Part shown: one piece after another, positions 4,030 through 49,853 of the stretch
Layout: every line of letters begins with the position of its first letter
Numbering within the stretch: the first letter of the stretch is position 1
DNA from: Candidatus Sungiibacteriota bacterium
GTDB taxonomy: Bacteria; Patescibacteriota; Minisyncoccia; Sungbacterales; HO2-52-23
Direction of reading: 5' to 3'
Assembly (NCBI GenBank): GCA_016180435.1
Contig: JACPBG010000004.1
Coordinates: 59,660 to 123,659, forward strand
Length of the DNA: 64,000 bases
Translations under genes and position numbers: made by a program
Notes under the pieces: model-generated
What the model was told of the DNA's origin: nothing
The model's input: only the letters and a program-made list of their open reading frames with translations
Database searches by the model: none

Positions 4030-4200
4030 CGCTAGTGAGTGTATGGGCGATTGAGTCCGTTTTATTTCAGACAATGGGAGGACAAAATTGCTTGGTTTTG
4101 CGCGAATGCGCGCAAAAATTTTGTCCGACCCTTAGTGAGTCCCGCGCTGGACGGGACGAATCGTGTCTGAAATAAAATGGTGAAAATCGCCATACCGAGT
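4030..4200 (+). promoter_or_regulatory. structured leader upstream of hsp20: long-range inverted repeat (ggcgatt..ttttatttcagaca / tgtctgaaataaaa..aatcgcc) plus internal hairpin GTCCCGcgctggaCGGGAC
   Basis: inverted repeats seen directly, ~4046-4073 vs 4166-4193. Confidence 0.3.
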
Positions 4201-12361: not shown

Positions 12362-13972
12362 ATGCTCAAACCAAAATATTTTCTCTACGCTCGCAAGAGC
12401 ACCGAGGATGATGACAAACAAGTAATGTCTATTGAAGCACAGCTTTTTGAATTGCGTGAATTTGCCAAAAGAGAAAATATTGAAATTCTTGAAGAATTTA
12501 CCGAGGCGAAAAGCGCAAAGACGCCGGGACGAGAAGTATTTAATTTAATGATGGGAAAAATTGAAAAATTGGAGGGAGTTGGAATCCTCGCGTGGCACCC
12601 AGATCGTCTCGCTAGAAATTCTGTTGATGGTGGTAAAATCGTTTATTTTGTTGATACGCAAAAAATAATTTCTTTGCGCTTTCCGCAATTTTGGTTTGAG
12701 CCAACTCCGCAAGGGAAATTTATGTTGCAAGTGGCGTTCGGACAGAGCAAATATTTTTCTGACAACTTGGTGGAAAATGTAAAGCGCGGTATCCGCCAAA
12801 AACTCCGCCGTGGCGAGTGGTTGACGCTCGCACCCTTTGGCTATGTGAACAATCCGAAAACGAGACAAATTGAACCGCACCCTACCAAATCAAAAATTGT
12901 CGTGCGAGCGTTTGAGGAGTTTGCCAAAGGAACGCATACGCTCAAAAGTATGTCGGAGTTTTTGGCGGAGCTTGGCGTTGAAACAAAGAACCGAACGCCA
13001 CTTGCGAAATGCAGTATTCACCACTTACTTACCAATCGCGCCTATCTCGGTTTTGTCGCGCACCACGGCGAATATCACGAGGGCACATTTCCGCCAATTC
13101 TTTCCCTCGCAACCTTTGAAGCCGTGCAGGAAGTATTGAAAAGGAAAGCGAAACCTCGCAAATCCAAACAGAGGCACAATTTCCCTTTTACCGGACTACT
13201 CACCTGCGGAGAGTGCGGCTCGGCGATCACCGCGCAATTCGCGCACGGCAATGGCGGAACATATCGCTACTATCGGTGCACGCGGAAAAAGGGAAATTGC
13301 GCTCAAAGATATTTGCGAGAGGATTTACTCGTTTCGCAATTAAAAGCACGGCTTCAAAGCGTTGCGCTTTGCGATGAGTGGATAAAGAAAATGTTAGCGA
13401 AAGTAAATGAATGGGAAAAAGAAAAAGTCCACTCATCGCAAACATTCGTCCAAAATCTGGAAACCAAAAGAACGGCCACGCAAGAGAAACTGGATAAACT
13501 TGTCTCGGCGTATATTGACGGCGACATACCCAAAGAAAACTATTTGAAAAAGAAAGAGGAGTTATTGAAGCAAAAAGTTTCTTTTGCGTCCCAAAAATCG
13601 GATTTTGGACGAACGGGAAAGAATTGGATCGAACCCTTGCGGAGTTGGATTTTAGATATACAGAAAGCCGAAAAATTGTCGCAGAGCGACAATTTTGAGG
13701 ACATTAAGGCGTTTGTCCAAAAAGTTGGAACGAACCATCAACTTTTGGACAAATCCGCTTCATTTTCGTTTTCTGCGCCGTGGGATTATGCGGCTTTGCG
13801 TCTCGCGCAAAGCCGCCAAGCCGAGGGGCGAAGCGGCGAGGCAACCTCCCCCAAAAATCGGGAAAGTATTATCATGTCCCCTCGGGAAGAATTGAACTCC
13901 CATTTTCTCCTTAGGACGGAGACGCTCTGTCCGTTGAGCTACGAGGGGGTTTGGATATTCGCTAAAATATAG
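12362..13972 (+). CDS. large serine recombinase (resolvase/invertase catalytic domain + recombinase domain + zinc ribbon); annotated ORF reads through right repeat and tRNA-Arg so true stop may be as given or protein C-terminus is fortuitous read-through
   Basis: YARKSTEDDDKQ (catalytic Ser region), LAWHPDRLARN, VKRGIRQKLRRGEWLTLAPFGY, CGECGS...YRYYRC. Confidence 0.85.
   Translation: MLKPKYFLYARKSTEDDDKQVMSIEAQLFELREFAKRENIEILEEFTEAKSAKTPGREVFNLMMGKIEKLEGVGILAWHPDRLARNSVDGGKIVYFVDTQKIISLRFPQFWFEPTPQGKFMLQVAFGQSKYFSDNLVENVKRGIRQKLRRGEWLTLAPFGYVNNPKTRQIEPHPTKSKIVVRAFEEFAKGTHTLKSMSEFLAELGVETKNRTPLAKCSIHHLLTNRAYLGFVAHHGEYHEGTFPPILSLATFEAVQEVLKRKAKPRKSKQRHNFPFTGLLTCGECGSAITAQFAHGNGGTYRYYRCTRKKGNCAQRYLREDLLVSQLKARLQSVALCDEWIKKMLAKVNEWEKEKVHSSQTFVQNLETKRTATQEKLDKLVSAYIDGDIPKENYLKKKEELLKQKVSFASQKSDFGRTGKNWIEPLRSWILDIQKAEKLSQSDNFEDIKAFVQKVGTNHQLLDKSASFSFSAPWDYAALRLAQSRQAEGRSGEATSPKNRESIIMSPREELNSHFLLRTETLCPLSYEGVWIFAKI
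13775..13876. repeat. ~104-bp inverted repeat, right copy, lying inside 3' end of recombinase ORF and abutting tRNA-Arg(CCT) 3' end
   Basis: reverse complement of 12195-12298. Confidence 0.8.
13877..13948 (-). tRNA. tRNA-Arg (anticodon CCT); overlapped by 3' end of recombinase ORF
   Basis: cloverleaf by hand: acceptor CCCCTCG/CGAGGGG, D-arm GCTC..GAGC, anticodon loop GTCCTAA, T-loop TTCAATT; backbone very similar to tRNA-Arg(TCT) at 17102. Confidence 0.7.
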
Positions 13973-15063: not shown

Positions 15064-15447
15064 TTAGGCCGTGCCAGCCGCCTTTTTTACGCGCTCTACA
15101 ATTTCCGGGAGCGCGAAATTTGCTTTTACAAGATAATCAATCGCGCCCAGGCGTTTGGCTTCTTCAATATCGGTTTCTTCCGAGAGGTTTGAAAGAAACA
15201 TGGCTTTCATTTCCGGTCCTCCGGGTTCGCGCCGTATTTTGCGCAGTGTGTCAAAGCCGTTTTGGTCCGGAAGCAGTACGTCAAGTAGAATAATATCCGG
15301 CGCGGATTCTTTGAATTTTTCAACACCCTCGGCTCCGGTACGCGCCACCGAAATTTCAAAACCCGCATTGGAGAATTCATGCGTCAAAAGTTCCACCATA
15401 AAGGCGTCGTCCTCAACCAATAGAATTTTATGAGAAGTTTCTGCCAT
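15064..15447 (-). CDS. single-domain CheY-like response regulator (receiver domain); start taken at MAETSHKILLVEDD rather than longest ORF (15573)
   Basis: ILLVEDD...DIILLDVLLPDQNGFD...KAMFLSN receiver-domain pattern. Confidence 0.75.
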   Translation of the reverse strand: MAETSHKILLVEDDAFMVELLTHEFSNAGFEISVARTGAEGVEKFKESAPDIILLDVLLPDQNGFDTLRKIRREPGGPEMKAMFLSNLSEETDIEEAKRLGAIDYLVKANFALPEIVERVKKAAGTA

Positions 15448-15451
15448 AAAT

Positions 15452-15571
15452 GGGATTGTTGCCGAATGCGCTTTCGTAGCGAAAATGATGAATTTTGAGA
15501 CAAAATCGCTGAATAAACTTGGCGGCCTATCTGAAAGATAAGCCAAGAAGATGGTATTCGGCAACAGTCCC
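15452..15571 (-). ncRNA. ~120-nt structured 5' leader element immediately upstream of response-regulator start codon; second copy at 62732-62893
   Basis: outer stem GGGATTGTTGCC/GGCAACAGTCCC, internal hairpins CGCTttcgtAGCG and TTGGC..TATCtgaaaGATA..GCCAA; conserved blocks shared with 62732-62893. Confidence 0.45.
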
Positions 15572-15629
15572 AAATATAGTGTATAACTTTATTGGATTAA
15601 AATCAAAAACCGGTTTTGCACAAAACTTG

Positions 15630-19672: not shown

Positions 19673-21865
19673 ATGTCTATTTTGGATATTCCAATTGAAA
19701 ACGCGCCGCGGATCAACCGCCGCATTATTCCGGCGCTTAGGCGTTTGGGCATAAAAACCGTGCGCGATATTTTGTTTCATTTTCCCTCGCGCTATGAAGA
19801 TTTTTCGAACGAGAAACAAATTTCTGAAATAAAAATCGGAGAGATAGTAACCATATCCGGAATTATTAAAAGAACCGCTTTGCACCGCACGGCCCGCAAA
19901 CATATGGCGCTGGTGGAGGCGGTGGTTTCGGACGAGAGCGGATCCATAAAAGCCGTTTGGTTCAACCAGCCGTATCTTTTGCGGAATTTCAGAATCGGCA
20001 ACGCTCTGCGCCTTTCCGGAAAAATTGCCCGCGGACCCAAAGGAGTTTATCTGCAAAATCCCGCATACGAGAAGTTATCAGCTACCAGCTACCAACTACC
20101 AGCTCAACAAAGTATCCATACTGGAGGACTGGTTGCAATTTATCCGGAAACGCGGGGCATTACTTCGCGTTGGTTGAGGTTCTTGGTAAAGACCTTTATT
20201 GATCAGAGAAAATTTATAATTGATCCTCTGTCGACCGATGTGCGGAAAAAGCATGTTCTTCCGGATATTCAAACCGCGCTCAAAGTAATCCATTTTCCGC
20301 AAGATAAAAAGGAATCAAATCAGGCGCGACGTCGGTTCGTTTTTGAGGAACTTTTTTTAATCCAACTTCGTGCGCTTCGCGCCCGGGCGTTACTTAAGCA
20401 ATACTCGGCTCCCCAGATTCCGACCAATTTGCCGCTTCTTAAAGAATTCGTGGCGTCTTTGCCTTTTAAGTTGACCGATGCCCAGCGCCGATCCGTGTGG
20501 GAAATCGCGAAAGATATAGAAAAACCGCGTCCCATGAACCGTCTGCTGGAGGGAGATGTGGGGTCCGGAAAAACCGTGGTTGCGGCCGCAGCCGCATTGC
20601 TTGCGGTTCGCGCGGGATACAAGATCGCATTTATGGCGCCCACCGAAATTCTGGCGCACCAGCACTATGATACGTTTCAGAAAATACTTGAGCCGTTTGA
20701 TATAAAAATTGGAATTTTGACCGGCGCGAAAAAATTAGCACAAAATGCGGACATAATAGTCGGCACGCATGCGCTTCTCCACCCCGTTAGAAGTAAGACG
20801 TCGGGGGCGTCTGCCGATCCAATTTTATCGGATCGGACTTCTAACGGGGTAAAAAAATCCGCCAGGTTTGAAAATTTGGGGCTGGTGATTATTGACGAAC
20901 AGCATCGTTTCGGAGTCCAGCAACGAGCGGCGCTTGTTGTACGCGGATCTGCGTTGCTGCCCCACTTTTTAAGCATGAGTGCAACCCCCATTCCGCGCAC
21001 TCTTGCCCTTACAATCTATGGAGACTTGGACCTTTCCATATTGGATGAGATGCCAAAATCGCGGAAACAGGTTATTACGAGAATCATAGAGCCGGGGAAA
21101 CGGAATGAGGCATACCAATTTATTCGATCAGAAGTAAAAAAAGAAAGACAAGTTTTTGTGATATGTCCGCGCATAGAGCCATCACCAACGAATAACCCCG
21201 AAGTAGAACCATCGGTTCACTACGGGGCAGGCGAATCCGGCGCGAATAAACGAATAAATGAATCGGCGTTTCGCTTGTGGGAGGTTAGGGCGGTGAAAGA
21301 TGAATATAAAAAACTTTCCGAAACAATTTTTCCCGAATTTAAAATAGGAATGCTTCACGGCAAATTAAAATCCAAAGAAAAAGAGGCGGTGATGAAAAAA
21401 TTTAAAAGCGGAGAAATCGATATTCTGGTTTCAACTTCGGTGGTGGAGGTCGGCGTGGATATACAAAATGCCACGATCATGATTATAGAGGGCGCGGAGC
21501 GTTTCGGGCTGGCACAACTTCATCAATTCCGCGGCCGCGTGGGGCGCGGGACTGATCAATCATATTGTTTTCTTTTTCCCACCGAGGACGGCATGGTAAC
21601 GCGGCGTCTGCGCGCGGTGGTGGATGCCAGAAACGGATTTGAGCTGGCGGAGCAGGATCTGAAAATCCGCGGTCCCGGCGATCTTTTCGGGACGGAACAA
21701 TGGGGAATTTCGGATACGGCCATGGCCGCAATTACCGATTCGGTTTTGGTCCGAGAGGTGCGCTCTGCCGCTTATGATTTGATGCGTGAAGACCCCCTGC
21801 TTTTACTTGTGCCGGAGTTAAAGCGCAAACTTGAAGAGATTGAAAAAACAGCTCATCCGGAATAA
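19673..21865 (+). CDS. recG: ATP-dependent DNA helicase RecG, carrying in-frame palindromic-element insertions
   Basis: LEGDVGSGKTVVAAAAALLAVRAGYKIAFMAPTEILAHQH (Walker A region), LVIIDEQHRFGVQQR (DExH), helicase C motifs; wedge-domain region FNQPYLLRNFRIG. Confidence 0.9.
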   Translation: MSILDIPIENAPRINRRIIPALRRLGIKTVRDILFHFPSRYEDFSNEKQISEIKIGEIVTISGIIKRTALHRTARKHMALVEAVVSDESGSIKAVWFNQPYLLRNFRIGNALRLSGKIARGPKGVYLQNPAYEKLSATSYQLPAQQSIHTGGLVAIYPETRGITSRWLRFLVKTFIDQRKFIIDPLSTDVRKKHVLPDIQTALKVIHFPQDKKESNQARRRFVFEELFLIQLRALRARALLKQYSAPQIPTNLPLLKEFVASLPFKLTDAQRRSVWEIAKDIEKPRPMNRLLEGDVGSGKTVVAAAAALLAVRAGYKIAFMAPTEILAHQHYDTFQKILEPFDIKIGILTGAKKLAQNADIIVGTHALLHPVRSKTSGASADPILSDRTSNGVKKSARFENLGLVIIDEQHRFGVQQRAALVVRGSALLPHFLSMSATPIPRTLALTIYGDLDLSILDEMPKSRKQVITRIIEPGKRNEAYQFIRSEVKKERQVFVICPRIEPSPTNNPEVEPSVHYGAGESGANKRINESAFRLWEVRAVKDEYKKLSETIFPEFKIGMLHGKLKSKEKEAVMKKFKSGEIDILVSTSVVEVGVDIQNATIMIIEGAERFGLAQLHQFRGRVGRGTDQSYCFLFPTEDGMVTRRLRAVVDARNGFELAEQDLKIRGPGDLFGTEQWGISDTAMAAITDSVLVREVRSAAYDLMREDPLLLLVPELKRKLEEIEKTAHPE
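20782..20849. repeat. RPE-like palindromic element, family 1 (CCCCGTTAGAAGT...ACTTCTAACGGGG), inserted in-frame in recG adding ~23 aa (PVRSKTSGASADPILSDRTSNGV)
   Basis: terminal 13-bp inverted repeats; same termini at 29584-29684 and 59050-59183. Confidence 0.8.
21196..21227. repeat. palindromic element family 2 copy (CCCCGAAGTAGAA-n8-TTCACTACGGGG) inside recG
   Basis: shares TTCACTACGGGGCAGGCG with 18661-18680. Confidence 0.6.
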
Positions 21866-22684: not shown

Positions 22685-24145
22685 TTATTGAACGGGTTTG
22701 AATACTAATTGATTTTCGGAAACGCAAAGCAGCGTTTCTTTGCCATTGACGGTCGTATTCAGGACCACTTCGTGCCCCCAAAGCTGGCGAAGATACTGGA
22801 GCGTCTTCTCGGCATATTCTAACTGGAGGTCGCGGCCGTCATGGGCGTGCTTCAAATATAGCGTTCGCTCACTGTTATAATCGGCATCCTCAACTTTAAT
22901 GACCGGTATGGTTCCGGTGCCGACGTTTTGAATCAAAGTGTCTTTGATGCTCCGCCAGTTCTCCTCGTCGGCGACGCGGCTGATGACTTTGTCGTTGCCC
23001 CTGGTTTGATATTCAAACAGTTTGAGTTCGCGAACCAGGTCTTCAGTAAGGAATCGTCGAAGAAAAGATGTGTCCCGCTCAACTTCGCGCACCACAAATA
23101 TTTTATTCCTGCCCTGCATTGTTTTTATGTTCCAGTCGCTTCGTTCGCTAGCCGTACACAAATCATATTCCGGACCGAAACGGCCTTTATCCCACCGCTC
23201 TTCAATGTCTTCCCAGATTTTCATGCCAACATGATACGGATTTAGGCCGCCCGGAGTCGGACAGAGCACCTGCGTGTGGCGCACGATGAACTCCATATGT
23301 AGGTTTTGAGGCAGTTCTAGGGATTCAAGGATTCGTTTGTGCCAGAAGCTTGCCCAACCCTCGTTCATAATCTTGGTTTCCATCTGGGGAATGAAATACT
23401 GCGCTTGTTCGTGTACGATGGTCAAAAGGTCTTTTTCCCATTCCGCCAAGTGCGGGTTATGATCCCGCACAAAGAGAAGTATGTCTTCTTCCGGATAGGG
23501 CGGGACCTTTGTCAAGTCGGGTTCCACGTGTTCTACTCTCCGATGGATGGCGTGGTGCGGGTCATGCCTTGGCCTTGATTCATCGATTTTTCGTTCTTTC
23601 TGCTCTTTCTCGGTTTCTTTCTTGATGGAAAGATTCCGTCGGCATTGGAGCGATAGCGCGTGCGCCGCGTCAAGTACGCGCTCAACTTTTTCCAGTCCAA
23701 TGCTTGGATCCTCAATGTAGTGGCGCACGCGGTTGGCGTGAGCCTTGAATGTTTCAATAGTGTATTCCGTCTGGGTGGTTCTGAAAGTGAAGTTGTTCTT
23801 AAAAAAGTCGTTGTGCGCGTATACATGGGCGATGGTGAGAACCTGCAAGGCCAGACTGTTATCGCGCATGAGATAGGCGATGGAGGGATTGGAATTGATC
23901 ACCATCTCGTAGGGCAGGCCGCTGAGACCGTAGTCGTAAAGGGTTTTGAGTTTCTCGAACCCCTTGCCGTAAGACCAGTGGGGATAGTGGGAGGGCATGC
24001 CGGAATAGACCATATAAGAGAGCATCTGTTCATAGTCGCAGACCTCGAATTCCTGGGAATAGGGGTCAAGACCGAATTTTTGCACCAGTTCAACGATACG
24101 CTGGTTCCACTCCTGGAGATCTTCGGTTGTCCATTCTCTACTCAT
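22685..24145 (-). CDS. SpoVR/YcgB-family protein
   Basis: N-terminal similarity pattern to YcgB: ...SYMVYSGMPSHYPHWSYGKGFEKL...PYEMVINSNPSIAYLMRDNSLALQVLTIAHVYAHNDFFKNN. Confidence 0.8.
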   Translation of the reverse strand: MSREWTTEDLQEWNQRIVELVQKFGLDPYSQEFEVCDYEQMLSYMVYSGMPSHYPHWSYGKGFEKLKTLYDYGLSGLPYEMVINSNPSIAYLMRDNSLALQVLTIAHVYAHNDFFKNNFTFRTTQTEYTIETFKAHANRVRHYIEDPSIGLEKVERVLDAAHALSLQCRRNLSIKKETEKEQKERKIDESRPRHDPHHAIHRRVEHVEPDLTKVPPYPEEDILLFVRDHNPHLAEWEKDLLTIVHEQAQYFIPQMETKIMNEGWASFWHKRILESLELPQNLHMEFIVRHTQVLCPTPGGLNPYHVGMKIWEDIEERWDKGRFGPEYDLCTASERSDWNIKTMQGRNKIFVVREVERDTSFLRRFLTEDLVRELKLFEYQTRGNDKVISRVADEENWRSIKDTLIQNVGTGTIPVIKVEDADYNSERTLYLKHAHDGRDLQLEYAEKTLQYLRQLWGHEVVLNTTVNGKETLLCVSENQLVFKPVQ

Positions 24146-25346
24146 AATTCACCTCGTTTTTAATGTTTGCGCGGTCTTTGGCAAGAAAGGTCTTGAAGGC
24201 GGACCAGATATCCTCTTTGCGCTGGATTTGCACCGTGAGGAAGTTGGGCTCCTGGATCTGCGAGAAATACTGAATCATGCTGCTGCCGTAGTAGCCCGCG
24301 CCCAAGGGCTTGATTTCGCCGTAGCCAAACAGATTGGATATTTTGGCGAGTTCCCGCGCGGAATTTAGCGCGGCGGTATTGTCGGATTCGAAATTGTCGC
24401 CGTCGGAACAGTGAAAGGCGTAAACGTTCCAGAGAGCGGGATGATATCGTTCATTGATGACCTCCAGGGCCTTGTTGTAGCCGGATGAGATAAAGGTTCC
24501 GCCGGATTCGCCCTTGTGGAAAAACTCTTCCTCGGTCACTTCGCGGGCTTCGGTGTGATGGGCGATGAACACGATCTCGACGTTCTGATAGCGCGTGCGC
24601 AGGAATTGGTACAGTAAAAAGAAGAAACTGCGCGCTAGATACTTTTTCATTGTATCCATGGAGCCGGAAGTATCCATGATGGCCATAACTACGGCGTTGG
24701 ATTCGCGCCGCATCTCTTTGACAACATGGTGGTAGCGCAGATCATCCTCGTGAAAAGGAAAGCGCTCGCCGTGAAGATTCGCGGCACCGGAGCGATGTGC
24801 GGATTTTTTGCGTCGTACTCGGGCACGGGCAGTGCGTTTTTTGTCCAAGCGCACGCGGATGCCTTTTTTTCGGAATCCTTTTTGGCGGAGATGGTCTACC
24901 GTCACGATTTCGCGTAAGTGCTTGCGTTCCAGATCCGGCAGTTCCAGGTCTTCGAACATCACTTCAATCAACTCATCGAGGCTGACCTCGGTCTCGTAGT
25001 AATCAACGCCGGCTTGGTCTCCGGCTTGCTGGCCCTGAGCGCCTTTTTTGCCTTGGCCAATGGTTTGTCCGGGCTGCAGGTCACCGTCCCCGCCTTGTCC
25101 CACGCCGGGCGCGTTCTCTCCGTAAACGAAACGGTATTCTTTTACACCTCGAATCGGCACTTTGATCACGCGGTTTTTGTCTTTGCCGATAATGGATTCT
25201 TCGGCGATGATGTCGGCGATGTTGTTACGAATCGCCTCGCGTACTTTCTGGCGGTGGCGCTGGCGATCCCCGGCCGATCGGTCGCTGCGCTGTCCGGAGG
25301 AAGGGTGATATGGCCGAAATATAGTATCCATCCGATAAACCTCCAA
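24138..25346 (-). CDS. YeaH/YhbH-family protein (DUF444, vWA-like)
   Basis: DTSGSMD...YQNVEIVFIAHHTEAREVTEEEFFHKGESGGTFISSGY...WNVYAFHCSDGDN closely parallels E. coli YeaH core. Confidence 0.8.
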   Translation of the reverse strand: MEVYRMDTIFRPYHPSSGQRSDRSAGDRQRHRQKVREAIRNNIADIIAEESIIGKDKNRVIKVPIRGVKEYRFVYGENAPGVGQGGDGDLQPGQTIGQGKKGAQGQQAGDQAGVDYYETEVSLDELIEVMFEDLELPDLERKHLREIVTVDHLRQKGFRKKGIRVRLDKKRTARARVRRKKSAHRSGAANLHGERFPFHEDDLRYHHVVKEMRRESNAVVMAIMDTSGSMDTMKKYLARSFFFLLYQFLRTRYQNVEIVFIAHHTEAREVTEEEFFHKGESGGTFISSGYNKALEVINERYHPALWNVYAFHCSDGDNFESDNTAALNSARELAKISNLFGYGEIKPLGAGYYGSSMIQYFSQIQEPNFLTVQIQRKEDIWSAFKTFLAKDRANIKNEVNYE

Positions 25347-25435
25347 TTGTAAAAGGCCTGTTTCTGTATTCGTAGTAGTATCATAATCGGCAAATAAAGT
25401 CCACGGATAAAAAAAGACACCCTGGCCGGGTGCCG

Positions 25436-27427
25436 TTATTTAAAAATTCGTCTGGCGTAGCTTAACAGGTTCTGCCAGCAACACTCCCGGTATCCTCTAT
25501 TCTGCAATAGTTCTTTCTTTATTTTGTCTAGGTTCTGCTTGGCTTTGTTGGGGTCAATCCCTTTGTCTTTCTCTTGATCCAGTGAATTCCAACATACTGC
25601 ACGCCTCACTATATCGTGATATTCGCTTATGATTTGCTTGGTCACCGCTTCTTCGAGCGGCAGATGGCTATCAAAATCATACGGCGGATCTCCCGGCAGG
25701 TTAGAATCCACACATTTTCTGAAATCATCGGCAGCTACTCCAATCACCGCGATTTGTTCCTCAATCTTTTCAAGAAAGTCCCGATTTGGATCTATGCACG
25801 TCACCTTGTTTTCGGCGTCCCGGATTTCAACTTTTTGTTTTTTTAAAAGGGCTTTCGTGTGAACCGCATAATCGTTGAAATACGTTTTTTGCCGCTCGGT
25901 GAATGCGGAGGATCCGACATGGCCGCGTACCAAATCTTCAAAGGCGCGATCTTGATACCAATCCCCCTCCAGCGGCGCGTGATCATATTCTCCCGATGAA
26001 TTCTTATCAATGGGGACCCACTTTTTTATCCGCGCCAAAGAGTCGCTTTCAAGGTTTTCAAAATTGGCTTCACGAATCGTCCTGATAAATTGGTTGATGC
26101 CTATGCAATTGTTCTGTTGCCCGGCCAACGCCATCAGATTGCCACCTTGGCGCATAGTCAGGCCGCGCGTTCCGTCTTTAGGCCTTTTATCACAGAGTTC
26201 TCGAAAACTATGTTTGACGAGGAATTTTCTATCGTCAGAAATCATGGCGCCGCCGCCGTAAAAAAGCGCCGCCTCGGCATTTTCGAGCTTCAGCTTATAT
26301 GGATAGTTATCCGTGTCAAGACGAGATGCGGTTATTACCTGACAGGCGGCCTCCTCTACCCACGGGACAAAGTGAAAACTGCGTCCCTCACTCATTGATT
26401 CTTTGCGCTGAATCTTAAGTTCCGCAACCGGATCCATAACCATAGGAAATGTTACGGAAACCACTCGATCAATGAGCGCGTCCTCTTTTGGAAACGCCTC
26501 TTTGATCGTTTTATTACTAATGCTTACAACCGCTATGTCCGGCCACCAGTCGGTTTGATCCCGGCCCTTGAACCAGCCGTCGCTGACCATCCGGCTTAAC
26601 CTGCCGCAAAATTCTAGGTTTTGTGCGGGAAAGTCAACAAAGAAAAGCCCACCGTTGGCCAAATCAATTACTCGGTACCAATCCTCCGGAATTTTTGAAA
26701 CCCTGCCTTCCTTGTCAAATTCCGGTTCAGTCAACCTCCCCTCGATCTGCAACATCCCGATACCTGCCCCCAGGCGGTATTCAGATGATTTTACCGGCAT
26801 ATTTTCCCATTTTCCGCCAAATTCATTTTGAAAACGCTCTTCGCATCCTCGACACAGCCGTCCTCGAAAACGAGACAGGCGAGAAGCTATATTTTCATGG
26901 CATAACACCTTTTGAATATCATCCCGCGGGTGTCCTATTTTTTTCCGCAGTGTACGCGGAATGGCGTTTAACGGATGCTCGTGGTGCGGACATTCCTCAA
27001 GGTAAAAAAAGCTTTCTTCTTCCATTTTGTCCGCGATGAGTTTCAGCCACGTTGTCTTTCCTACCCCGGTTTTGCCGGTGACCTCGAGTATTCTCCGCTC
27101 CATGGCTCCGCCGGATGCTGCTTGTCTGAAGAATTCGCCTGTTTCCGCCAAATAGGGATCAATGCCGACAAGTTCATTTTTGAACAAAGGAAAACGCATA
27201 TACTGCGGCGGTTGATTGTGAAACAGATTTTTCTCACGCGGGGCCTTGAGCTCCGATAGGATTTCCGGCCCCTCCCCGTTTATAGTCGAGGAAATCGCTT
27301 TCCATACTTTGCTGTATGCGCGATCAAGCAGTTCGGGTTTTTCCTGGGCGCACCTTAAAAGGTCTCCAATTGTTTTGATTTCGCTTGACATTTTGTCAGC
27401 TCCTTTTCCGATTCTGATTTTATTCAA
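25436..27427 (-). CDS. PrkA-like paralog (divergent PrkA-family AAA/serine-kinase-like protein)
   Basis: Walker A VTGKTGVGKTTWL, CP..H..PL, FGGKWENMP, FLEKIEEQIAVIGVAADDFRKCV all parallel motifs in the adjacent canonical PrkA. Confidence 0.7.
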   Translation of the reverse strand: MNKIRIGKGADKMSSEIKTIGDLLRCAQEKPELLDRAYSKVWKAISSTINGEGPEILSELKAPREKNLFHNQPPQYMRFPLFKNELVGIDPYLAETGEFFRQAASGGAMERRILEVTGKTGVGKTTWLKLIADKMEEESFFYLEECPHHEHPLNAIPRTLRKKIGHPRDDIQKVLCHENIASRLSRFRGRLCRGCEERFQNEFGGKWENMPVKSSEYRLGAGIGMLQIEGRLTEPEFDKEGRVSKIPEDWYRVIDLANGGLFFVDFPAQNLEFCGRLSRMVSDGWFKGRDQTDWWPDIAVVSISNKTIKEAFPKEDALIDRVVSVTFPMVMDPVAELKIQRKESMSEGRSFHFVPWVEEAACQVITASRLDTDNYPYKLKLENAEAALFYGGGAMISDDRKFLVKHSFRELCDKRPKDGTRGLTMRQGGNLMALAGQQNNCIGINQFIRTIREANFENLESDSLARIKKWVPIDKNSSGEYDHAPLEGDWYQDRAFEDLVRGHVGSSAFTERQKTYFNDYAVHTKALLKKQKVEIRDAENKVTCIDPNRDFLEKIEEQIAVIGVAADDFRKCVDSNLPGDPPYDFDSHLPLEEAVTKQIISEYHDIVRRAVCWNSLDQEKDKGIDPNKAKQNLDKIKKELLQNRGYRECCWQNLLSYARRIFK

Positions 27428-27558
27428 AAGTTAACGTGCTGGGTTAGATATACGACATAATTATATAAAATACAAGGGCGTCTCGTACCAAATAAAATTC
27501 CCGTCACGTAAACGTAACGGGCTACTAAGTTCTAAGATCTAAGTTCTTGGTGCTTGTC

Positions 27559-29493
27559 TTAATCTTTCCACAGGTTATTGGCCGCGTATTTGAGAATCAC
27601 GTCCACGCAGCTCGGGCAGTATCCATGCTCAAGGAGATTTTTGGTCATCATGTCGTATTTTTCCGTTTGCTCCGTGTCGCGCATGCGCGACTTGGTGATA
27701 ACCCGGCTTAGGTCGCGCACCGAAGTGATGAGTTTTTTCTCAATGGCCTCTTTGAGTGGCTCGTAACTGCGGAAGTCAATCTTTTCTTCGCGCCGCTTGG
27801 CTGCCCATAGATAGGAGATCACTTCCTGGCGGAATCCGTCGGCGGCCGAGCCGATGATGGCGATTTGCTCCTCGATTGATTTCATGAATCCTTCGTCGGG
27901 CGCCAACTCTTCTTTGGTGTTGCGATCCTTTACTTTGCTCTTGTTAACGTAGGCCTCGGCGTGATCCAGGTAATTCTGGAATAGCGCCTCCGCCTGCTCC
28001 TGGTAGGAATAGACAAACGCGCGGGTAATCTCCTTTTCCAGCACCTCAAGGTACTCCTTGTGCAGTGTATCCTGGAGAAACTCCAGATACTGCTTGCGCA
28101 TTTCGTCCGACAGATCAGCTTCCTTCACCATGTTGATCAGCGCTTCCCGAACATTGATGGGGTTGATGCAGTTGCCAGCGGTATTGTCGGTGAGCGCGTT
28201 ATCCAAGGCCTTCATTATGAAGCGCGTGGAAATACCGTTCATGCCTTCGCGTTTGGCTGCCTCGCGCAATTCCTGTACATCAACTTTCTTGGTGCGCCCC
28301 TTCTCAAGCACCTCTTCGCCGTTATACAGCTTCAGCTTGGTCATGAGGTCGCACTTGTTGGTGGGCTCCAGGCGCGACAGGATCGCGAACATGGAGGCGA
28401 CCTCCAGGGTGTGCGGCGCCACGTGGGCGCGGAAGTCGGAGTTGCGGATGATCTTCTGATAAATTTTAACTTCTTCGGAGAGGCGCAGGTTGTAGGACAC
28501 GCGAATCACCACAATGCGATCCAGAATCGCTTCGTTGGTGTGGTCTCCCTTGAATTTCTGCCACTCAGCCTCGTTGGAATGGGCCACGATAACTGTGTCC
28601 ACATAGACCAATCCGTGGCGGCCGGGCGCGGGCACAACCTTTTCTTGGGTCGCCGTGATCATGCAATGGAGATACTCGATTTCGTTTTTGAAAACCTCAA
28701 TGAACTCAACTATGCCGCGGTTGCCAACATTAAGCGCGCCATTTAGTTCCAGGACCCGCGGATCGCCCTCGGAATAGAGATCCAACTTCGAGATATCTTC
28801 GCTGCCGATCAGTACGGAAGTATCTTGGTTATTGGAATCCACAGGCGGAACCGATGCGGTACCGACCCGCGCGCGTTTGGAAAATTCCACGGTAGTAATT
28901 GGGAAGTCCTCATACTTGCCGCCGAACTCTTCTTTAAGCCGATAACGGCAGACCGGACACAGGTCGCCTTCAATGTGAATTCCCAGCATCTTTTCAAATT
29001 CTTTTCTCAAGTGGCGCGGTATCAAATGCAGGGGCTCTTCGAACATCGGACAGCCATCAATGGCGAAGATGGGATCGCTTGCCTCCAGGCCTCGATTCAG
29101 TTTTTCCGCAAGCGAGCTTTTGCCGGAACCCACCGGACCCATCAGATAGAGCACCTGGCGGCTTTCTTCACCTTTGAGCGATGCGGCGTGGAAGTAGCGC
29201 ACGATCTGGCTGACTATTTTCTCGATGCCGAAGAACTCATCGGTGAAGAAATCGTAAACCTTGATTGACTCGTCTTTGAAAAGACGTTTAACGTGGGGGT
29301 CGGTGCTTTCCTGAATGTCGCGGACGCCTGCTTTGACGATGATGTCATAAAAACGGGCGTGAGCCAGCTTGGCGATGGAGGGATCTTCCTTGATCTTGTC
29401 GAGGTAGCCGAGTAGCTTCCCGCTCCAATCATTTCGCCTATGGTGTGTTTCTCGGTCCTGTCTGATCAGTTCTCTGTATTCGTCTTCGCTCAT
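27559..29493 (-). CDS. prkA: PrkA-family serine protein kinase (YeaG-like)
   Basis: LYLMGPVGSGKSSLAEKL, FGGKYEDFP, NGALNVGNRGIVEFIEVFK, HCMITATQEK, IVAHSNEAEW, EEQIAIIGSAADGFRQEV. Confidence 0.85.
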   Translation of the reverse strand: MSEDEYRELIRQDRETHHRRNDWSGKLLGYLDKIKEDPSIAKLAHARFYDIIVKAGVRDIQESTDPHVKRLFKDESIKVYDFFTDEFFGIEKIVSQIVRYFHAASLKGEESRQVLYLMGPVGSGKSSLAEKLNRGLEASDPIFAIDGCPMFEEPLHLIPRHLRKEFEKMLGIHIEGDLCPVCRYRLKEEFGGKYEDFPITTVEFSKRARVGTASVPPVDSNNQDTSVLIGSEDISKLDLYSEGDPRVLELNGALNVGNRGIVEFIEVFKNEIEYLHCMITATQEKVVPAPGRHGLVYVDTVIVAHSNEAEWQKFKGDHTNEAILDRIVVIRVSYNLRLSEEVKIYQKIIRNSDFRAHVAPHTLEVASMFAILSRLEPTNKCDLMTKLKLYNGEEVLEKGRTKKVDVQELREAAKREGMNGISTRFIMKALDNALTDNTAGNCINPINVREALINMVKEADLSDEMRKQYLEFLQDTLHKEYLEVLEKEITRAFVYSYQEQAEALFQNYLDHAEAYVNKSKVKDRNTKEELAPDEGFMKSIEEQIAIIGSAADGFRQEVISYLWAAKRREEKIDFRSYEPLKEAIEKKLITSVRDLSRVITKSRMRDTEQTEKYDMMTKNLLEHGYCPSCVDVILKYAANNLWKD

Positions 29494-29583
29494 CTTTTTT
29501 CTCCTTGTTTTGTGGCCAATATTGAGTTACCAAAGATCACATTACGTAAGCGCACTATAGCGCAAACCCCCATAAAAAGTCAA

Positions 29584-29684
29584 CCCCGTTAGAAGTTTGG
29601 TCCTGAAATCTCCATACGATTCAAATAATCCAACTATTATTGTGATGACGCATACACCGGGTGAGGATTACACTTCTAACGGGG
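29584..29684. repeat. RPE-like palindromic element family 1, intergenic copy
   Basis: CCCCGTTAGAAGT ... ACTTCTAACGGGG termini. Confidence 0.8.
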
Positions 29685-29929
29685 TCAACCCCCCAGTTTT
29701 GTACAATACGAGATTAGCCCCAAATAATCCTTAACTATACGGTATCAAAGGTAATTCCTCGACTCGCTCGGCTCGCTTGGAGAATATTGTTCGAGTTTAT
29801 CGAGAACCTTCCTAAGGTAACCGCGCAGCAAGCTGACGCGGAATTATCAAGTTAAAAAACCCATGAAATTCCATGGGCCCATTTTATTGAGGTGAAGACG
29901 GGGCGAGCAAGCCCGCGGTTTTCTGGGGC

Positions 29930-29962
29930 GCGGATAAAAAATCGGGCGAGGCCCGATTAAAT
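29930..29962 (-). terminator. rho-independent terminator downstream of Pup-like locus (AATCGGGCctcGCCCGATT + T-run on minus strand)
   Basis: hairpin followed by TTTTTTATCC on coding strand. Confidence 0.6.
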
Positions 29963-31674
29963 TAACTCATATTTATTTCATCTTCATTTTCCGGATGTGT
30001 ATCGGATATCGCCGGTCTGAATTTTTTGGCGGCGCGATTTACTTGCGCCAGCGCTTTTCTGTCGCGGGCGGATATTTTGTAACGCTCCGGGTCGAGGTTT
30101 TTGATATATAGGATTTTGGCGGATCTCTTGCCTGCATTAAATACAAAAGTAAACTCTTCCCAAACAGAGTCAACCAGGCATTTTTTATCGAGCTCGCGGG
30201 AAAAAATTATCCGGAGTATTTCTTCGCGCCAGTTAGCGCGCGTGCGTTCCGGCGGATTTTGCGTGGCCCACCTGACAAGATTTTCCGGAAATAATTTTTT
30301 AATAAGGCCGGCGCGAAGATACTGGCCGTAGGGACTTTGGGCGGTGTCCATGAATGCGTACTCGGATATGAACTCAAGAATATCTCGCAAAACATCCTGG
30401 TTGGAAGATGTGGGGATTTTTCCAACCGGCCGTTCTTCGCCGCGCGGCAGGATAGCTTCCGGATCAAACCCTCGGCTTTTCAGATACGGCATGATAAAAT
30501 AATGCAAAATCGCGGCCCAATCCAGGAATTGCGCAAGATACGGGAGGTCCCAGTGGGCGATCGCATCAATTATGTTTTCCCAGAGATTAAGGGCAAGTTT
30601 CCGTTCCGGGCTGAAGGATTGGCGTCCCGGCCCCGCAAAAAATTCCTGCGCCTGTTTTATGTAGAAGCGCTGGAAATCAAGCGCGTTCCAGCGTAAACCC
30701 TCTTCCAGAAGCGAAACCGGATTTTTTGATCCGGGGTCGGCGTTAAAAAAAAGCGAGGCCTCGAATAAATCCATCGGATAAATGTTCGGCGGGATCTTTA
30801 GAAATTTCTCTTCGGCCATGGTCAGAATAATGTCCAGCGTTGCATATTTCAAAAACAATTGCCATGCGGACATCGTGGAATTTCCTGACACATCATGGTG
30901 GCGTCTCCATCTCGTTTTGTCTGCGTATTGAGAATCTTTTTTTGAGAAGAAACTGGGTTTGTCTTCGGCCTTCCTGTTATTTTTCATGACCTCGGCGCGT
31001 TGGGAGAGGACAAACTGCAGGGTGTTGTCCGTTGCATTGATTTTTATCCAGCCGTTTCCAATAAGGCACCAGCGCGATATTAAAAACGGTATAATTAATT
31101 CGAAAAAATCACTGCGTTTGGAAAAGACCGATTTTTTTACCAAATAATTGGCATGCGAGCCCCAGCTGTTAACATCTAAATCCACCATCGGATACAATTC
31201 CACGTCGTAACAACAATTTCGGTTGGTCTTATAAAGTTTGAAATCCAAACCGGTTTTTCTTTTCAGGCGCCGCATCATCTGCGTCATAATCTGGAGCCCC
31301 GCGCTCTCAAAAAGCGCAAGTTCCAGGGCGCCCAGGCACTCCGGAGTGGAATATTCCACATGTTCGTTATCTATATAGATGATTCCTTGATTAGGAAGAA
31401 CGGCTTTGGGACGCCGGTTTGAGAAGCTGTCGTCATCCGGGTTGATTAGCCGGCGGCGGTCTTGTTTTGAAACCGCAGCGCGCAGAATCAATGGCTGATT
31501 TTCCGATTCCTTGACAAGAAGAAAAGGCTCCGGCGAACTTAATTCATTTTCGGCGCCCATGATGCGATGGATTATTCTTTCGGTTTTTTGCGAACCCATG
31601 CGTGTACCGTATTGAATTGGCAAGTTCCTGAATAAAGCATCGCAAGATATACGAAATAAAGCAAGCGGCGGCAT
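29962..31674 (-). CDS. PafA/Dop-family (Pup ligase/deamidase family) homolog 2; start may be internal Met (~31599)
   Basis: RIMGAENE (cf. RIMGIETE), IYIDNEHVEYSTPEC (cf. LYLDVGSHPEYATAEC), WGSHANYLV (GCHENYL), FVLSQRAE (LSQRA), RRHHDVSGNSTMS (RRLHVIVGDSNMS). Confidence 0.7.
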   Translation of the reverse strand: MPPLALFRISCDALFRNLPIQYGTRMGSQKTERIIHRIMGAENELSSPEPFLLVKESENQPLILRAAVSKQDRRRLINPDDDSFSNRRPKAVLPNQGIIYIDNEHVEYSTPECLGALELALFESAGLQIMTQMMRRLKRKTGLDFKLYKTNRNCCYDVELYPMVDLDVNSWGSHANYLVKKSVFSKRSDFFELIIPFLISRWCLIGNGWIKINATDNTLQFVLSQRAEVMKNNRKAEDKPSFFSKKDSQYADKTRWRRHHDVSGNSTMSAWQLFLKYATLDIILTMAEEKFLKIPPNIYPMDLFEASLFFNADPGSKNPVSLLEEGLRWNALDFQRFYIKQAQEFFAGPGRQSFSPERKLALNLWENIIDAIAHWDLPYLAQFLDWAAILHYFIMPYLKSRGFDPEAILPRGEERPVGKIPTSSNQDVLRDILEFISEYAFMDTAQSPYGQYLRAGLIKKLFPENLVRWATQNPPERTRANWREEILRIIFSRELDKKCLVDSVWEEFTFVFNAGKRSAKILYIKNLDPERYKISARDRKALAQVNRAAKKFRPAISDTHPENEDEINMS

Positions 31675-31710
31675 GAAAAAACGGGGAATATTCCCCGTAG
31701 AAATAAGTAT

Positions 31711-31911
31711 TTATTCGCCTTTTTCCTGTATGTGGCGGCGCCTTTTGCGTCGGGCCTTTTTCTTCAGATCCTTCTTGTTTTTCTTGAGTACCTCGTTGAT
31801 CCTTTTCTTTATTTCCTCCGCTTCCTCAACTGTGGCTCCAGGATTATTTATCACACCCCGCTCGGGGATATTGAATTCCGGGCGCTCTATTTTCTCGCGT
31901 TTTACCGGCAT
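31711..31911 (-). CDS. candidate Pup/UBact-like small protein modifier (66 aa, ends -QEKGE)
   Basis: located between two PafA/Dop homologs; helical segment ATVEEAEEIKKRINEVLKKN resembles Pup Mpa-binding helix TEETDDLLDEIDDVLEENAE; C-terminal Gly-Glu like Pup -GGQ/-GGE. Confidence 0.5.
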   Translation of the reverse strand: MPVKREKIERPEFNIPERGVINNPGATVEEAEEIKKRINEVLKKNKKDLKKKARRKRRRHIQEKGE

Positions 31912-31974
31912 AAAGACCTAATTTGCGCATATTTATCGGTTCTCATAACATTTTACGCCATATCCGAAAAATCA

Positions 31975-33567
31975 TCAAACGCAGAATTTCACAACTTTAA
32001 CCGGAATCATTCTTTCGGCATCGGCCAGAAATTTTTCAAGCGGCAGAGCCAGAAGCTGATCGGCAACTCCTTGGTTCCACATAAGAGTCGGGTCTTGGAA
32101 ATAAAGTTCTGCGCGGACAGTTCTTTTGGCCGGATTTTTAAATGAAATCATGTGCCAATAATTAGAGTCCGCAATATTTTTTTTGAAGCGGCGCGCCACA
32201 TTCATAATCCAGCGCGAGCGGGTTAGGGGCGGGGCGCCCACGGCGCCGTTGATATCCTGGTCGTGCGTAATGCGTCCGTTTTTGGCGAAAATTTCGCGCT
32301 GGAACACGCTTTCCGGATCATTATCATGGTATTCGTAGTCAAGCCCCATGGCTAAATCGCTTTTCCAGCCCCCTCGCTCTTGGGAGACGGCGTTTTGTAT
32401 GAATAGGAATTTGGTCGGCCAATCCAAAACGCCATAAAGCGATTCGTAGTCGCGCCGGAAAAGTTTTTTAAGAATATCGGCCAGGCGCGCTAAAACATCA
32501 TAAAGCACTTCATTTTCCGGATGATATTCATCCAGATAATTTCCGAAAAGTTCGTAATAATCCCAAAGGCAATCAAGCGCGAGGCGCGTTCTTTTTTTAT
32601 TTCGCAAAGTAACGCGGTGCGTCATGTCAAGCGAGCGCGAAATTGCCCAAAATTCTTTAACAGGATCCATGAGGGCGAAGCGGTTGTCCAGTACCTCATC
32701 CTCAAGCATCATAAAAAGTATGGATGTTAAGCCAATTTTGAGATACTCCGGAATTTCCAGCATATTGGAATCGCCGGGAATAACATGTATTCGGCGGAAG
32801 CGTCCGGCGTCGGCATACGGAGCGTCGCGGGTGTTATATATTCCCCGATCCTCCATGGTGTCCAGTCCCCACTCGCAGGTGAAAAAATCAGCGCGCTGGG
32901 AAATCTGGTAAGGCGCCTCCGGGGTGCAGTTGTCTGCCCCGATTTTGCCGGCTCCGATAAGAGGCGTGCGCAACACCAGCCACGGCACCGTATGCGATAT
33001 TAATTTTTCTAAAGGAATCCGGCGCAAAACCGTATAATTTTCGTGGCAAGCAAAAGAGTTGCGGGCGCCGGAGCCAGGAATATAATCTTGCGGTTTTCCG
33101 GCAACGTTATTTCTAATTACGGCGTATTTTTTTCTGTGAACCTCCTCGTGTTTTTTTCGCAAGAAATCAATTATGCGGTAACAGGCGCGATTCCAGGTAA
33201 TGAGCATTTTCGGATCAGAGCAGATCGGAGTTGAAATCTCGACATGCGCGCCATCAAGATATAGCCGGGCGCCGTTGGCAAGCAATATATTTTCACGCGA
33301 GCACCAGGAGTTCTCCTCAAAAAAATCATGATTTTTAGCGTCAGCATTTTTGGAAAGATCGCTAAACAACTCCGCTCGTATTTGCGGGCTTAATCTCTCC
33401 TGCGGATTCCACGGGATCATGCATGCATCCGGCATCCATTCGGGTTGGATGGATTGAATGAATTTGGCGTTGGCCGATATAGGGCCTGCGCGGGATGACA
33501 GATCAATGATCCCGAATTCGGTTTCAATCCCGCACATCTTGGGAATGGCGCGTGATTCTTTTGGCAT
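31975..33567 (-). CDS. PafA/Dop-family homolog 1 (clear member)
   Basis: MCGIETEFGI, NGARLYLDGAHVEISTP, FACHENY, ISQRADF, YNTRDAPYADAGRFRRIHVIPGDSNM. Confidence 0.85.
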   Translation of the reverse strand: MPKESRAIPKMCGIETEFGIIDLSSRAGPISANAKFIQSIQPEWMPDACMIPWNPQERLSPQIRAELFSDLSKNADAKNHDFFEENSWCSRENILLANGARLYLDGAHVEISTPICSDPKMLITWNRACYRIIDFLRKKHEEVHRKKYAVIRNNVAGKPQDYIPGSGARNSFACHENYTVLRRIPLEKLISHTVPWLVLRTPLIGAGKIGADNCTPEAPYQISQRADFFTCEWGLDTMEDRGIYNTRDAPYADAGRFRRIHVIPGDSNMLEIPEYLKIGLTSILFMMLEDEVLDNRFALMDPVKEFWAISRSLDMTHRVTLRNKKRTRLALDCLWDYYELFGNYLDEYHPENEVLYDVLARLADILKKLFRRDYESLYGVLDWPTKFLFIQNAVSQERGGWKSDLAMGLDYEYHDNDPESVFQREIFAKNGRITHDQDINGAVGAPPLTRSRWIMNVARRFKKNIADSNYWHMISFKNPAKRTVRAELYFQDPTLMWNQGVADQLLALPLEKFLADAERMIPVKVVKFCV

Positions 33568-33649
33568 ATTCCGCCCCTTTTAAAAAGCTGATCCCAGCGT
33601 AGCAGGTTTTGGGCCAAAATAAAATACCCCCGCGCGCTGCGTAGGGGCG

Positions 33650-33856
33650 TTATTTTGGATGGTTGCGATTTTCGCGGATGTCCTGGAATCTTCGGAGCAT
33701 CGCTTTTTGGGCGGATTCCAAAATATCAGACCGCAGGATTTTGAGCGATTGGTCAGTTCCGTGTTCAAGCCGTTTTAGTGCGGCCAGCTTGGCATTGCGG
33801 ACCGTTTCCTCGATCATGGCGCCGGTTATTACGTCAATTCCCTGTGACCTTTGCAT
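33650..33856 (-). CDS. small hypothetical helical protein overlapping AAA gene 3' end
   Basis: ORF only. Confidence 0.25.
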   Translation of the reverse strand: MQRSQGIDVITGAMIEETVRNAKLAALKRLEHGTDQSLKILRSDILESAQKAMLRRFQDIRENRNHPK

Positions 33857-37082: not shown

Positions 37083-37407
37083 AATTTAGTGGGTCTTAAA
37101 AGACCGCAAAATATAATTGTACAAATTTTTATGGTTAATCCCACACAAAAAACAAGTACTTTTAAATTTGAGCCAAGTGCAAGTTATGTGCGGGATTCAT
37201 GCGTTTTGTCATCATACACTAAAAAATACTACTGGACAAGTAGGAAAAAAATCAATAAAATTCCTATGTTATATGATCCCGTCCGTAGTCCAATTTTACT
37301 CTCCAACCCGCCTTGGCTATATAGCAAAATCCGGATTCCACCCGCATTCTTAATTTAGATATAGTGGATAATTTTACCTTGCAGTTCGGCTGTCATGTGT
37401 GATATAA

Positions 37408-49369: not shown

Positions 49370-49420
49370 TTTTTACAGATTAACACAGATTTCTCACAGA
49401 TGTTCACAGATCACAGATAA
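49370..49420. repeat. array of CACAGAT heptamers (x5, irregular spacing)
   Basis: inverted counterpart ATCTGTG array at 49803-49845. Confidence 0.7.
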
Positions 49421-49847: not shown

Positions 49848-49853
49848 CGGTGT

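Follow-up and report, generated by a model that had tools for sequence, protein, structure and literature searches.

How does a gene come to carry, in the middle of its coding sequence, a short palindrome-ended DNA segment that leaves its reading frame open? The question is raised by recG in a 64-kb window (the whole stretch of DNA analysed here, 64,000 nucleotides) from Candidatus Sungbacteria, a member of the candidate phyla radiation (CPR); the nearest homologues of its RecG are those of Sungbacteria and other Patescibacteria. We argue that the 68-bp segment is very probably a non-autonomous cut-and-paste transposon of the MITE type (miniature inverted-repeat transposable element), with 13-bp terminal inverted repeats (TIR), a near-free interior and a 4-bp target-site duplication (TSD) of the form TNNA, which survives in genes when it is in frame. 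Within a kind of mobile DNA that is already known it represents a new family, in which every structural character of a MITE is found except a known parent.

The segment in recG

The host gene and the parts of the element, referred to as copy 1, are the following:

19673–21865, plus strand: recG, the host gene (730 aa), an open reading frame (ORF) with the Pfam domains RecG_wedge, DEAD, Helicase_C and RecG_dom3_C
20778–20781, unstranded: left TSD of copy 1, TCCA; the related locus L127 has TCCA on both sides, and empty alleles read ATC CAA
20782–20794, unstranded: left TIR, CCCCGTTAGAAGT, from the sequence and from arm complementarity over 131 copies
20795–20836, unstranded: interior, of the 'ASAD' subfamily; related interiors were aligned from L127, L128, L129 and L131
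20837–20849, unstranded: right TIR, ACTTCTAACGGGG, from the sequence
20850–20853, unstranded: right TSD, decayed to TAAA (two mismatches with respect to TCCA); L127 has TCCA and L128 has TCAA there

The ORF is open through copy 1, which is read as the peptide HPVRSKTSGASADPILSDRTSNGV, 14 residues ahead of the DEQH box (in LGLVIIDEQH). The original prediction described an in-frame addition of about 23 residues; the frame is indeed kept, but the size is 24 residues, the element and its 4-bp TSD making 72 bp. These are residues 370–393, flanked by GTHALL and KKSARFENLGLVIIDEQH. In an alignment of 120 RecG homologues, 115 do not have the segment and read GTHALI-QKxVxFxNLGLV uninterrupted; the closest homologue (75% identity by BLAST, 80% over the shared columns) does not have it either. 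The other five have a segment of 21–26 residues at exactly this point, which starts with H/Y-P-V/A/M-R and ends with S-N/D-G-V/I/S.

The DNA of L127, one of the filled recG loci, reads CTT A-TCCA-(CCCCGTTAGAAAT…ATTTCTAACGGGG)-TCCA-AAAA, with a perfect TSD. Taking away the element and one TCCA gives CTT ATC CAA AAA, that is LIQK, the empty allele. Close relatives of L127 without the element have CTT ATC CAA AGG (L133), CTG ATT CAG AAA (L132) and TTG ATA CAA AAA (L130). Since 115 of the 120 homologues do not have the segment and the removal of the element and one TCCA in L127 restores the empty allele, these comparisons show that the 68-bp segment is an insertion and not ancestral RecG sequence, in agreement with the original prediction.

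The interior of copy 1 contains two small hairpins (AGACG…CGTCT and CCGATCC…GGATCGG), and the RNA of the whole copy folds into a tight three-way junction (−40 kcal/mol, z = −6.75). When the RecG of the window is modelled with AlphaFold2 (mean pLDDT 75, from 69 aligned sequences), residues 372–395 form a coil with pLDDT below 50, located between the strand 361–365 and helix 366–369 on one side and the motif-II strand 402–408 on the other. The model, which leaves the insert unstructured, is consistent with a tolerated loop.

A different insert is present in the RecG of L128 (P0008), in the wedge-domain region before IHTGG: it is a 60-bp palindrome-ended in-frame segment, CCCCGACGCGAAG…GAAGCGTCGGGA, which codes for the 20 residues PRREVGVPTSLSKESHEASG and is absent from the 89%-identical sister L133. 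There is therefore more than one family of ORF-colonising palindromic elements in these genomes.

Ends, target sites and spread of the family

Three elements had been predicted in the window, at 20782–20849, 29584–29684 and 59050–59183, and the sequence confirms all of them. Together with a decayed fourth, the copies other than that of recG are:

29580–29688 (element 29584–29684), unstranded: copy 2, TCAA + 101-bp element + TCAA, intergenic
59046–59187 (element 59050–59183), minus strand: copy 3, TTGA + 134-bp element + TTGA (TCAA on the coding strand), in an ORF that reads through it
1171–1196, unstranded: copy 4, a decayed 26-bp mini-element, CCCCGTTAGAGCCGGCTCTAATGGGG, in valS (ORF 23–3130)

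Copies 1, 2 and 3 (68, 101 and 134 bp, hence net insertions of 72, 105 and 138 bp with the TSD) all open with CCCCGTTAGAA and close with TTCTAACGGGG; copies 1 and 2 have the termini CCCCGTTAGAAG/CTTCTAACGGGG and copy 3 has CCCCGTTAGAAC/GTTCTAACGGGG. The interiors of the three are unrelated. When the window was shuffled 100 times with its dinucleotides preserved, the pattern of paired ends, CCCCGTTAGAA-N45-105-TTCTAACGGGG, never occurred. The regular steps of 33 bp between the three lengths are a coincidence, as 135 copies are spread broadly in length.

The neighbours of copy 2 are prkA, whose start (29493, minus strand) is about 90 bp downstream of it, and on its other side a Pup-ligase homologue. 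A promoter-like site, recognised from its match to the consensus (10 of 12 positions), is present upstream of prkA at 29554–29583 on the minus strand (TTGACT, 18 nt, TATAGT). The putative −35 hexamer TTGACT starts inside the TTGA that copy 2 has duplicated, so that copy 2 abuts the putative promoter.

Copy 3 adds 46 residues, NPVR…SNGV, to a protein of 545 aa encoded on the minus strand (ORF 58325–59962) which matches no Pfam family. Exactly those 46 residues are missing from three homologues of this protein (76%, 74% and 42% identity), and the empty site in L302, which encodes the 76% homologue, is GCG CGC G-TCAA-CAAA TTT, exactly what is left of the window sequence once the element and a single TCAA are taken out.

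Copy 4 adds ten residues, RPVRAGSNGV, to ValRS. Its TSD is no longer recognisable, and none of the 44 other ValRS homologues displayed out of a 70-sequence alignment has these residues. The same ValRS (ORF 23–3130, plus strand) also contains, at residues 571–751, a complete His_Phos_1 domain between the two halves of the catalytic domain; this domain is present in a subset of Sungbacteria ValRS (890–960 aa) and absent from others (680–710 aa).

The family was searched for in one genome per GTDB species, with paired 11-mers separated by an interior of 45–105. The paired ends are present in at least 120 stretches of genomes, for a chance expectation of about 2–4 according to our own arithmetic (22 fixed bases in 596 Gb), and a scan with single ends gave at least 120 stretches of metagenomes. 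The TIR is the 13-nt sequence CCCCGTTAGAARY, found in all the copies of the window, in which position 12 is A or G and position 13 is mostly T. Over 131 copies the complementarity of the two arms is 0.86 and 0.80 at positions 12 and 13, and falls to the random value of about 0.25 from position 14 onwards.

The four bases on either side of the element are identical in 74 of the 131 copies and match at three positions or more in 94, compared to 5 of 131 in an offset control. The commonest are TAAA, TTTA, TGAA, TTCA, TTGA and TCAA. Rare flank pairs (CAAG/CAAG, TATG/TATG and TGGG/TGGG) also agree as direct repeats, which shows that this is a true 4-bp duplication with a preference for TNNA rather than additional bases of the TIR; a weak G precedes the target and a weak C follows it (G-TNNA-C). 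In an independent sample of metagenomes, scanned with single ends, 59 of 88 exact pairs of at least 28 bp have an identical TSD.

Element sizes range from 26 to about 240 bp; in the sample, about 240 bp is also the upper limit for intact copies devoid of internal ends. Almost any sequence can stand between the two TIRs, over a length of a few bases to about 240 bp. The window has four copies in 64 kb, and metagenome-assembled genomes elsewhere also have several each. In L069, a 26-bp element with a TTTA duplication is nested within a 163-bp element, and L131 provides another nested case. Forms of 40, 61 and 95 bp make up a deletion series that retains asymmetric subterminal sequence ('ATTCCAG…GGGGCATTAT', CCCCGTTAGAAATTCCAG…GGGGCATTATTTCTAACGGGG). 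Beyond small subfamilies, there is no similarity between the interiors; only the 13-bp ends are common to all copies. Nor are the interiors particularly structured: the folding z-scores of 121 of them are no different from those of flanking controls (p = 0.09), and hairpins are carried by only some subfamilies, including that of recG. A scan of the window at the Rfam gathering score returned only tRNAs, and permissive scans of copies 1 and 2 only sub-threshold models of miRNA hairpins.

The hosts among the matches listed are Patescibacteria of many classes (about 45% of the copies), Desulfobacterota, Planctomycetota, Omnitrophota, Nitrospirota/Thermodesulfovibrionia, KSB1, Gammaproteobacteria and others. 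Some copies are found in a complete 3.3-Mb genome and in a 1.24-Mb contig, so that mis-binning does not explain the spread over phyla. Neither the sequence nor the topic led to a description of this element family in the literature searched, an absence that does not prove novelty.

Copies inside genes and the history of the recG site

About 90% of the copies are intergenic. The 14 copies (of 131, about 10%) that are located in long ORFs all have a length of 2 modulo 3, so that the element plus its TSD is divisible by three, and the remaining copies are distributed among the three length classes as 46:37:34. The coding copies keep the frame and contain no stop; ten read PVR…SNG(V/A) and four read PLE…(F/L)LTG. 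This is because the TIR is open in only two phases (C|CCC|GTT|AGA and CC|CCG|TTA|GAA), the third (CCC|CGT|TAG) being closed by TAG/TAA. The ends of the element are symmetric, hence the same terminal peptides are obtained in either orientation, which bears out what the original prediction stated about PVR…SNGV. Based on the frame filter seen in all 14 ORF copies, we infer that the in-frame inserts are translated and not skipped.

Copies in other genomes are found in murG, murD and an IF-2-like (infB-like) gene. On a metagenomic CPR contig (L185, 7246–10122), for instance, the start of murG is MNPVRNSKNKQDYNSMSPQKQNKVSNGVKILFTGGG and murD contains …FFVNPVRNQKSSNGVNNM…, each of these two neighbouring cell-wall genes having one copy of the family.

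The occupancy of the recG site may result from one event or from several. A neighbour-joining tree was made of 60 RecGs after the columns of the insert had been removed, and the five sequences with a filled site are dispersed over it: P0001, P0003 and P0008 are each paired with an empty sister (P0002, P0046 and P0019, respectively); P0016 and P0060 are close together in a further clade, which is otherwise made up of empty sequences. The identity at four-fold sites is 0.54, 0.65 and 0.77 within the filled/empty pairs and 0.36–0.43 between the filled lineages. Between these lineages the interiors of the insert are 0.48–0.71 identical and the TIRs 0.92–1.0, with the exception of P0060, whose copy is decayed.

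A second recG site is also occupied: P0029, P0062 and P0069 have an 'ASAD' copy with a TTCA duplication before IHTGG, which is 0.77–0.83 identical to the copies of the first site and was necessarily inserted independently. Yet another copy of the 'ASAD' subfamily is found in a ValRS (P0209). The similarity of the copies at the first site is therefore no proof of their common descent. We slightly favour the idea that a circulating subfamily inserted several times at the site ATCCA(A), over that of an old insertion that was precisely lost many times; either course of events is unusual. The intact TIRs of the window copy, next to a TSD that has two changes, suggest either that the insertion is recent or that the ends are under constraint. 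The orientation of the recG copies was considered as a means of counting events and is uninformative; the reverse orientation has, in our reading, an in-frame TAA.

Apart from the element, the window shows several features of its own. A GxxExxY PD-(D/E)XK gene (PF13366; ORF 49404–49847, minus strand) just downstream of nusG is flanked by 44-nt inverted repeats of CACAGAT-like units, which bracket 49375–49851; the same domain is found in frame within six other Sungbacteria RecGs (842–907 aa), between VxQRxAL and PHFLSMSAT. This looks like a separate small mobile gene. A second repeat family consists of two intergenic elements of 132 and 162 bp (15446–15577 and 62732–62893) which have the ends GGG(A/T)(T/C)TGTTGCCGAATGCGCTTTCGT… in common, in inverted orientation. 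Three segments of 129–146 bp (37063–37196, 13174–13302 and 4046–4191) have inverted repeats of 20–28 nt and are unrelated to the recG element. The segment at 13174–13302 is within the ORF of a large serine recombinase (12362–13972, plus strand; Resolvase, Recombinase and Zn_ribbon_recom domains), which overlaps a tRNA (13877–13948, minus strand) and may mark the edge of an integrated element.

The region 22685–34994 contains a PrkA/DUF444/SpoVR cluster with two PrkA paralogues, which adjoins two Pup-ligase homologues and a proteasomal-type AAA ATPase; in relatives, a Pup gene is found beside recG. Last, ThyX (39939–41639, minus strand, 566 aa) and thymidylate kinase (41799–42647, minus strand, 282 aa) are overlong and their Pfam domains are split in two, which suggests further insertions in housekeeping proteins.

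Alternative explanations, the putative enzyme and known systems

The combination of TIRs and a TSD of fixed length is the signature of cut-and-paste transposition of the DDE type, here with a 4-bp stagger. The element has no gene, so the enzyme would have to act in trans. A transposase supplied in this manner would bind both ends of the element and insert it at a 4-bp staggered cut, preferably at T-N-N-A and weakly at G-TNNA-C, and the repair of the stagger would duplicate the four target bases. A copy landing in a gene would survive only if the element plus its TSD is divisible by three, if the phase is open and if the additional residues are accommodated in a tolerated loop. In the case of recG, the target would have been the TCCA within ATC-CAA, which is located after the GTHAL strand and before motif II, and the insertion would be read as a 24-residue loop.

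Several observations weigh against this scenario. No autonomous partner with the same ends was found in the window or among about 290 loci. In the window, the analysis of 52 ORFs with Pfam identified no transposase, the only recombinase being the large serine recombinase; nor was any transposase found in the 120 genome loci, whose recurrent ORF families are all housekeeping, or in the 120 metagenome loci. Viral contigs gave six paired matches, single-end matches at chance level and no transposase, and a BLAST search of the 95-bp subfamily against plasmids gave nothing. It is uncommon for families of insertion sequences (IS) to have 13-bp ends that are identical across phyla. The TIRs of the recG copy are intact and the adjacent TSD has two changes, which is a poor fit to uniform neutral decay. 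Last, copies of 28–33 bp with TSDs are awkwardly small for a two-ended synaptic complex, unless they have shrunk after insertion.

A few candidate partners were examined and rejected. Among long-range pairs of ends with a matching TSD in the genome loci, there is one chance pair, in L069, around glycolysis genes. The candidate in L016 consists of 330-nt inverted repeats around a lipoprotein-like gene. On inspection, the candidates from the single-end metagenome scan (L185, L217 and L239) consist of mur/fts genes that have several small copies, a toxin–antitoxin segment that is duplicated, and unrelated genes.

A conserved transposase, perhaps domesticated like the RAYT enzymes of REPINs (see below), might be encoded outside these ends and act in trans, with seamless excision as in piggyBac, so as to maintain the family across phyla. 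We consider this proposal unlikely. If it were true, it would explain why the recG site is filled in five scattered lineages which have empty close relatives without any footprint, and why intact TIRs are next to a decayed TSD; it would also make the in-frame copies a reversible polymorphism of loops in essential proteins, both in CPR and in other bacteria.

Four other explanations can be considered. The 24 residues of RecG could be an ancestral, lineage-specific loop, in which case the palindrome would be incidental and no insertion would have occurred. The same peptide is indeed present at the same position in five Sungbacteria RecGs of 56–64% identity, and the original prediction had named orthologues with this peptide in distant lineages as evidence that would go against an insertion; formally they do exist, in other Sungbacteria RecGs of 56–62% identity. 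However, the insertion stands, because the lineages that have the peptide are interspersed with empty sister lineages, the duplication can be seen, and copies of this subfamily occur at the second recG site and in valS. An ancestral loop is also hard to reconcile with the 115 homologues of 120 that are devoid of the segment, including the sister of filled lineages, with a TCCA duplication whose removal restores the empty allele, and with the fact that the same termini enclose sequences of no relation to it, both at other places in the window and in many phyla. We give this explanation scarcely any credit.

It is hardly more credible that the element is skipped at the RNA level, as an intron-like hairpin, or at the translation level, by ribosomal bypass as in T4 gene 60 or the yeast mitochondrial 'byps', so that the protein is unaltered. 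The recG copy folds compactly and has a strong closing stem, and identical 4-mers flank the elements, which speaks for such a device, but all 14 ORF copies are in frame and free of stops, a filter that would be needless if the segment were skipped. Moreover, no matching pair of in-frame codons for take-off and landing results from the duplicated 4-mer (ATC CAC … GTC CAA), and no Rfam family is matched.

The third explanation is that the pair of ends is an immobile motif that is functional for the host. It could serve in DNA uptake, form a hairpin that acts as a terminator or regulator, or be the site of a recombinase or an integron attC. Neisseria is known to have uptake sequences in inverted pairs; the elements have a size range like that of attC, their ends contain GTTAGAA/TTCTAAC, and copy 2 adjoins a promoter-like site. 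On the contrary, the TSDs and the empty orthologous sites, the copies within essential ORFs and interiors that are not more structured than their flanks (p = 0.09) make a host motif highly improbable. As regards attC in particular, it was discarded: the order of the core sites, R'' RYYYAAC in 5' and R' GTTRRRY in 3', is reversed here (GTT… comes first and …AAC last), and there are neither arrays nor an integrase context.

The last explanation relates the family to repetitive extragenic palindromes (REP) and their inverted pairs (REPIN), which are moved as single-stranded DNA hairpins by a single-copy HUH enzyme (a REP-associated tyrosine transposase, RAYT, similar to IS200/IS605) rather than by a DDE enzyme. 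The elements are indeed tiny, present in high copy number and palindrome-ended, with no transposase beside any copy, and the mini-copies of 28–33 bp would fold as simple hairpins. We nevertheless find this explanation very unlikely. A regular 4-bp TSD is not a product of Y1/HUH transposition; the ends are CCCC, there is no 5' tetranucleotide of the GTAG type and no left/right asymmetry of subterminal hairpins; copies occur in ORFs as well as in extragenic space; and the window has no RAYT-like gene.

The MITE-type transposon, which we thus prefer, has several implications. The proteins of CPR/Patescibacteria are known for unexplained extra segments, and the family offers a concrete source for such insertions: a tiny transposon whose ends are open in two phases, found in recG, valS, murG, murD, an infB-like gene and others. 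The peptide signature [HNDY]PVR…SNG[VA] can be used to flag these inserts in annotations and in alignments for phylogeny. Gene flow between uncultivated bacteria of groundwater and sediment can be approached through the 13-bp ends, which are the same in Patescibacteria, Desulfobacterota, Planctomycetota, Omnitrophota and Nitrospirota. The family also defines a very small substrate (26–32 bp) for a putative transposase. What sets it apart is the conjunction of minimal 13-bp ends, spread over phyla, presence in essential CPR genes, repeated occupancy of one recG site and a missing transposase.

Like classical MITEs (Correia/NEMIS, ERIC, RUP, Nezha, MITEAba12), the present family has TIRs and a TSD, is non-coding and multicopy, gives deletion derivatives and is occasionally fused in frame to an ORF. 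Unlike it, classical MITEs have internal similarity, are limited to a genus or a family and usually have a known parent IS (with TA duplications of the IS630 type, for example), whereas here the TSD is a 4-bp TNNA, identical ends are found across phyla and no parent was found.

The IS1380 and piggyBac transposons make duplications of 4–5 bp of the form T…A, and their ends are CC or CCC followed by TAGAA-like bases; the end of piggyBac is CCCTAGAAAG and its target is TTAA. The two are reportedly linked (PMC10813416). The present family resembles them by its 4-bp T…A TSD and its CC(CC)…TAGAA ends, which are weak, non-specific criteria and give a lead only; the target is TNNA and not TTAA, and no such transposase was found near any copy. 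The resemblance to the REP/REPIN–RAYT system lies in very short, numerous, palindromic and gene-less elements that would depend on a single-copy enzyme encoded elsewhere, but REPINs have no TSD, have a 5' end of the GTAG type, are extragenic and are specific to a species or a genus.

The original prediction compared the recG segment to Rickettsia palindromic elements (RPE), which are short palindromic repeats inserted in frame in protein-coding genes and translated as extra surface segments that seem compatible with the function of the protein (PMC10969869). The comparison is apt as far as the behaviour is concerned, since the present elements are repeated, palindrome-ended and tolerated in frame in ORFs, where they are probably translated. 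It does not extend to membership of the family. RPE-1 to RPE-10 are defined by a full-length consensus of about 100–150 bp; no full-length consensus exists here, where only the 13-bp ends are common to copies of 26 to about 240 bp that have a 4-bp TSD, which leaves little room for full-length similarity to an RPE family. RPE are also confined to Rickettsia and close relatives (Rickettsiales), whereas the present elements, about 90% of which are intergenic, are found in Candidatus Sungbacteria and other CPR, Desulfobacterota, Planctomycetota and many further phyla, and are MITE-type elements with TIRs and a TSD.

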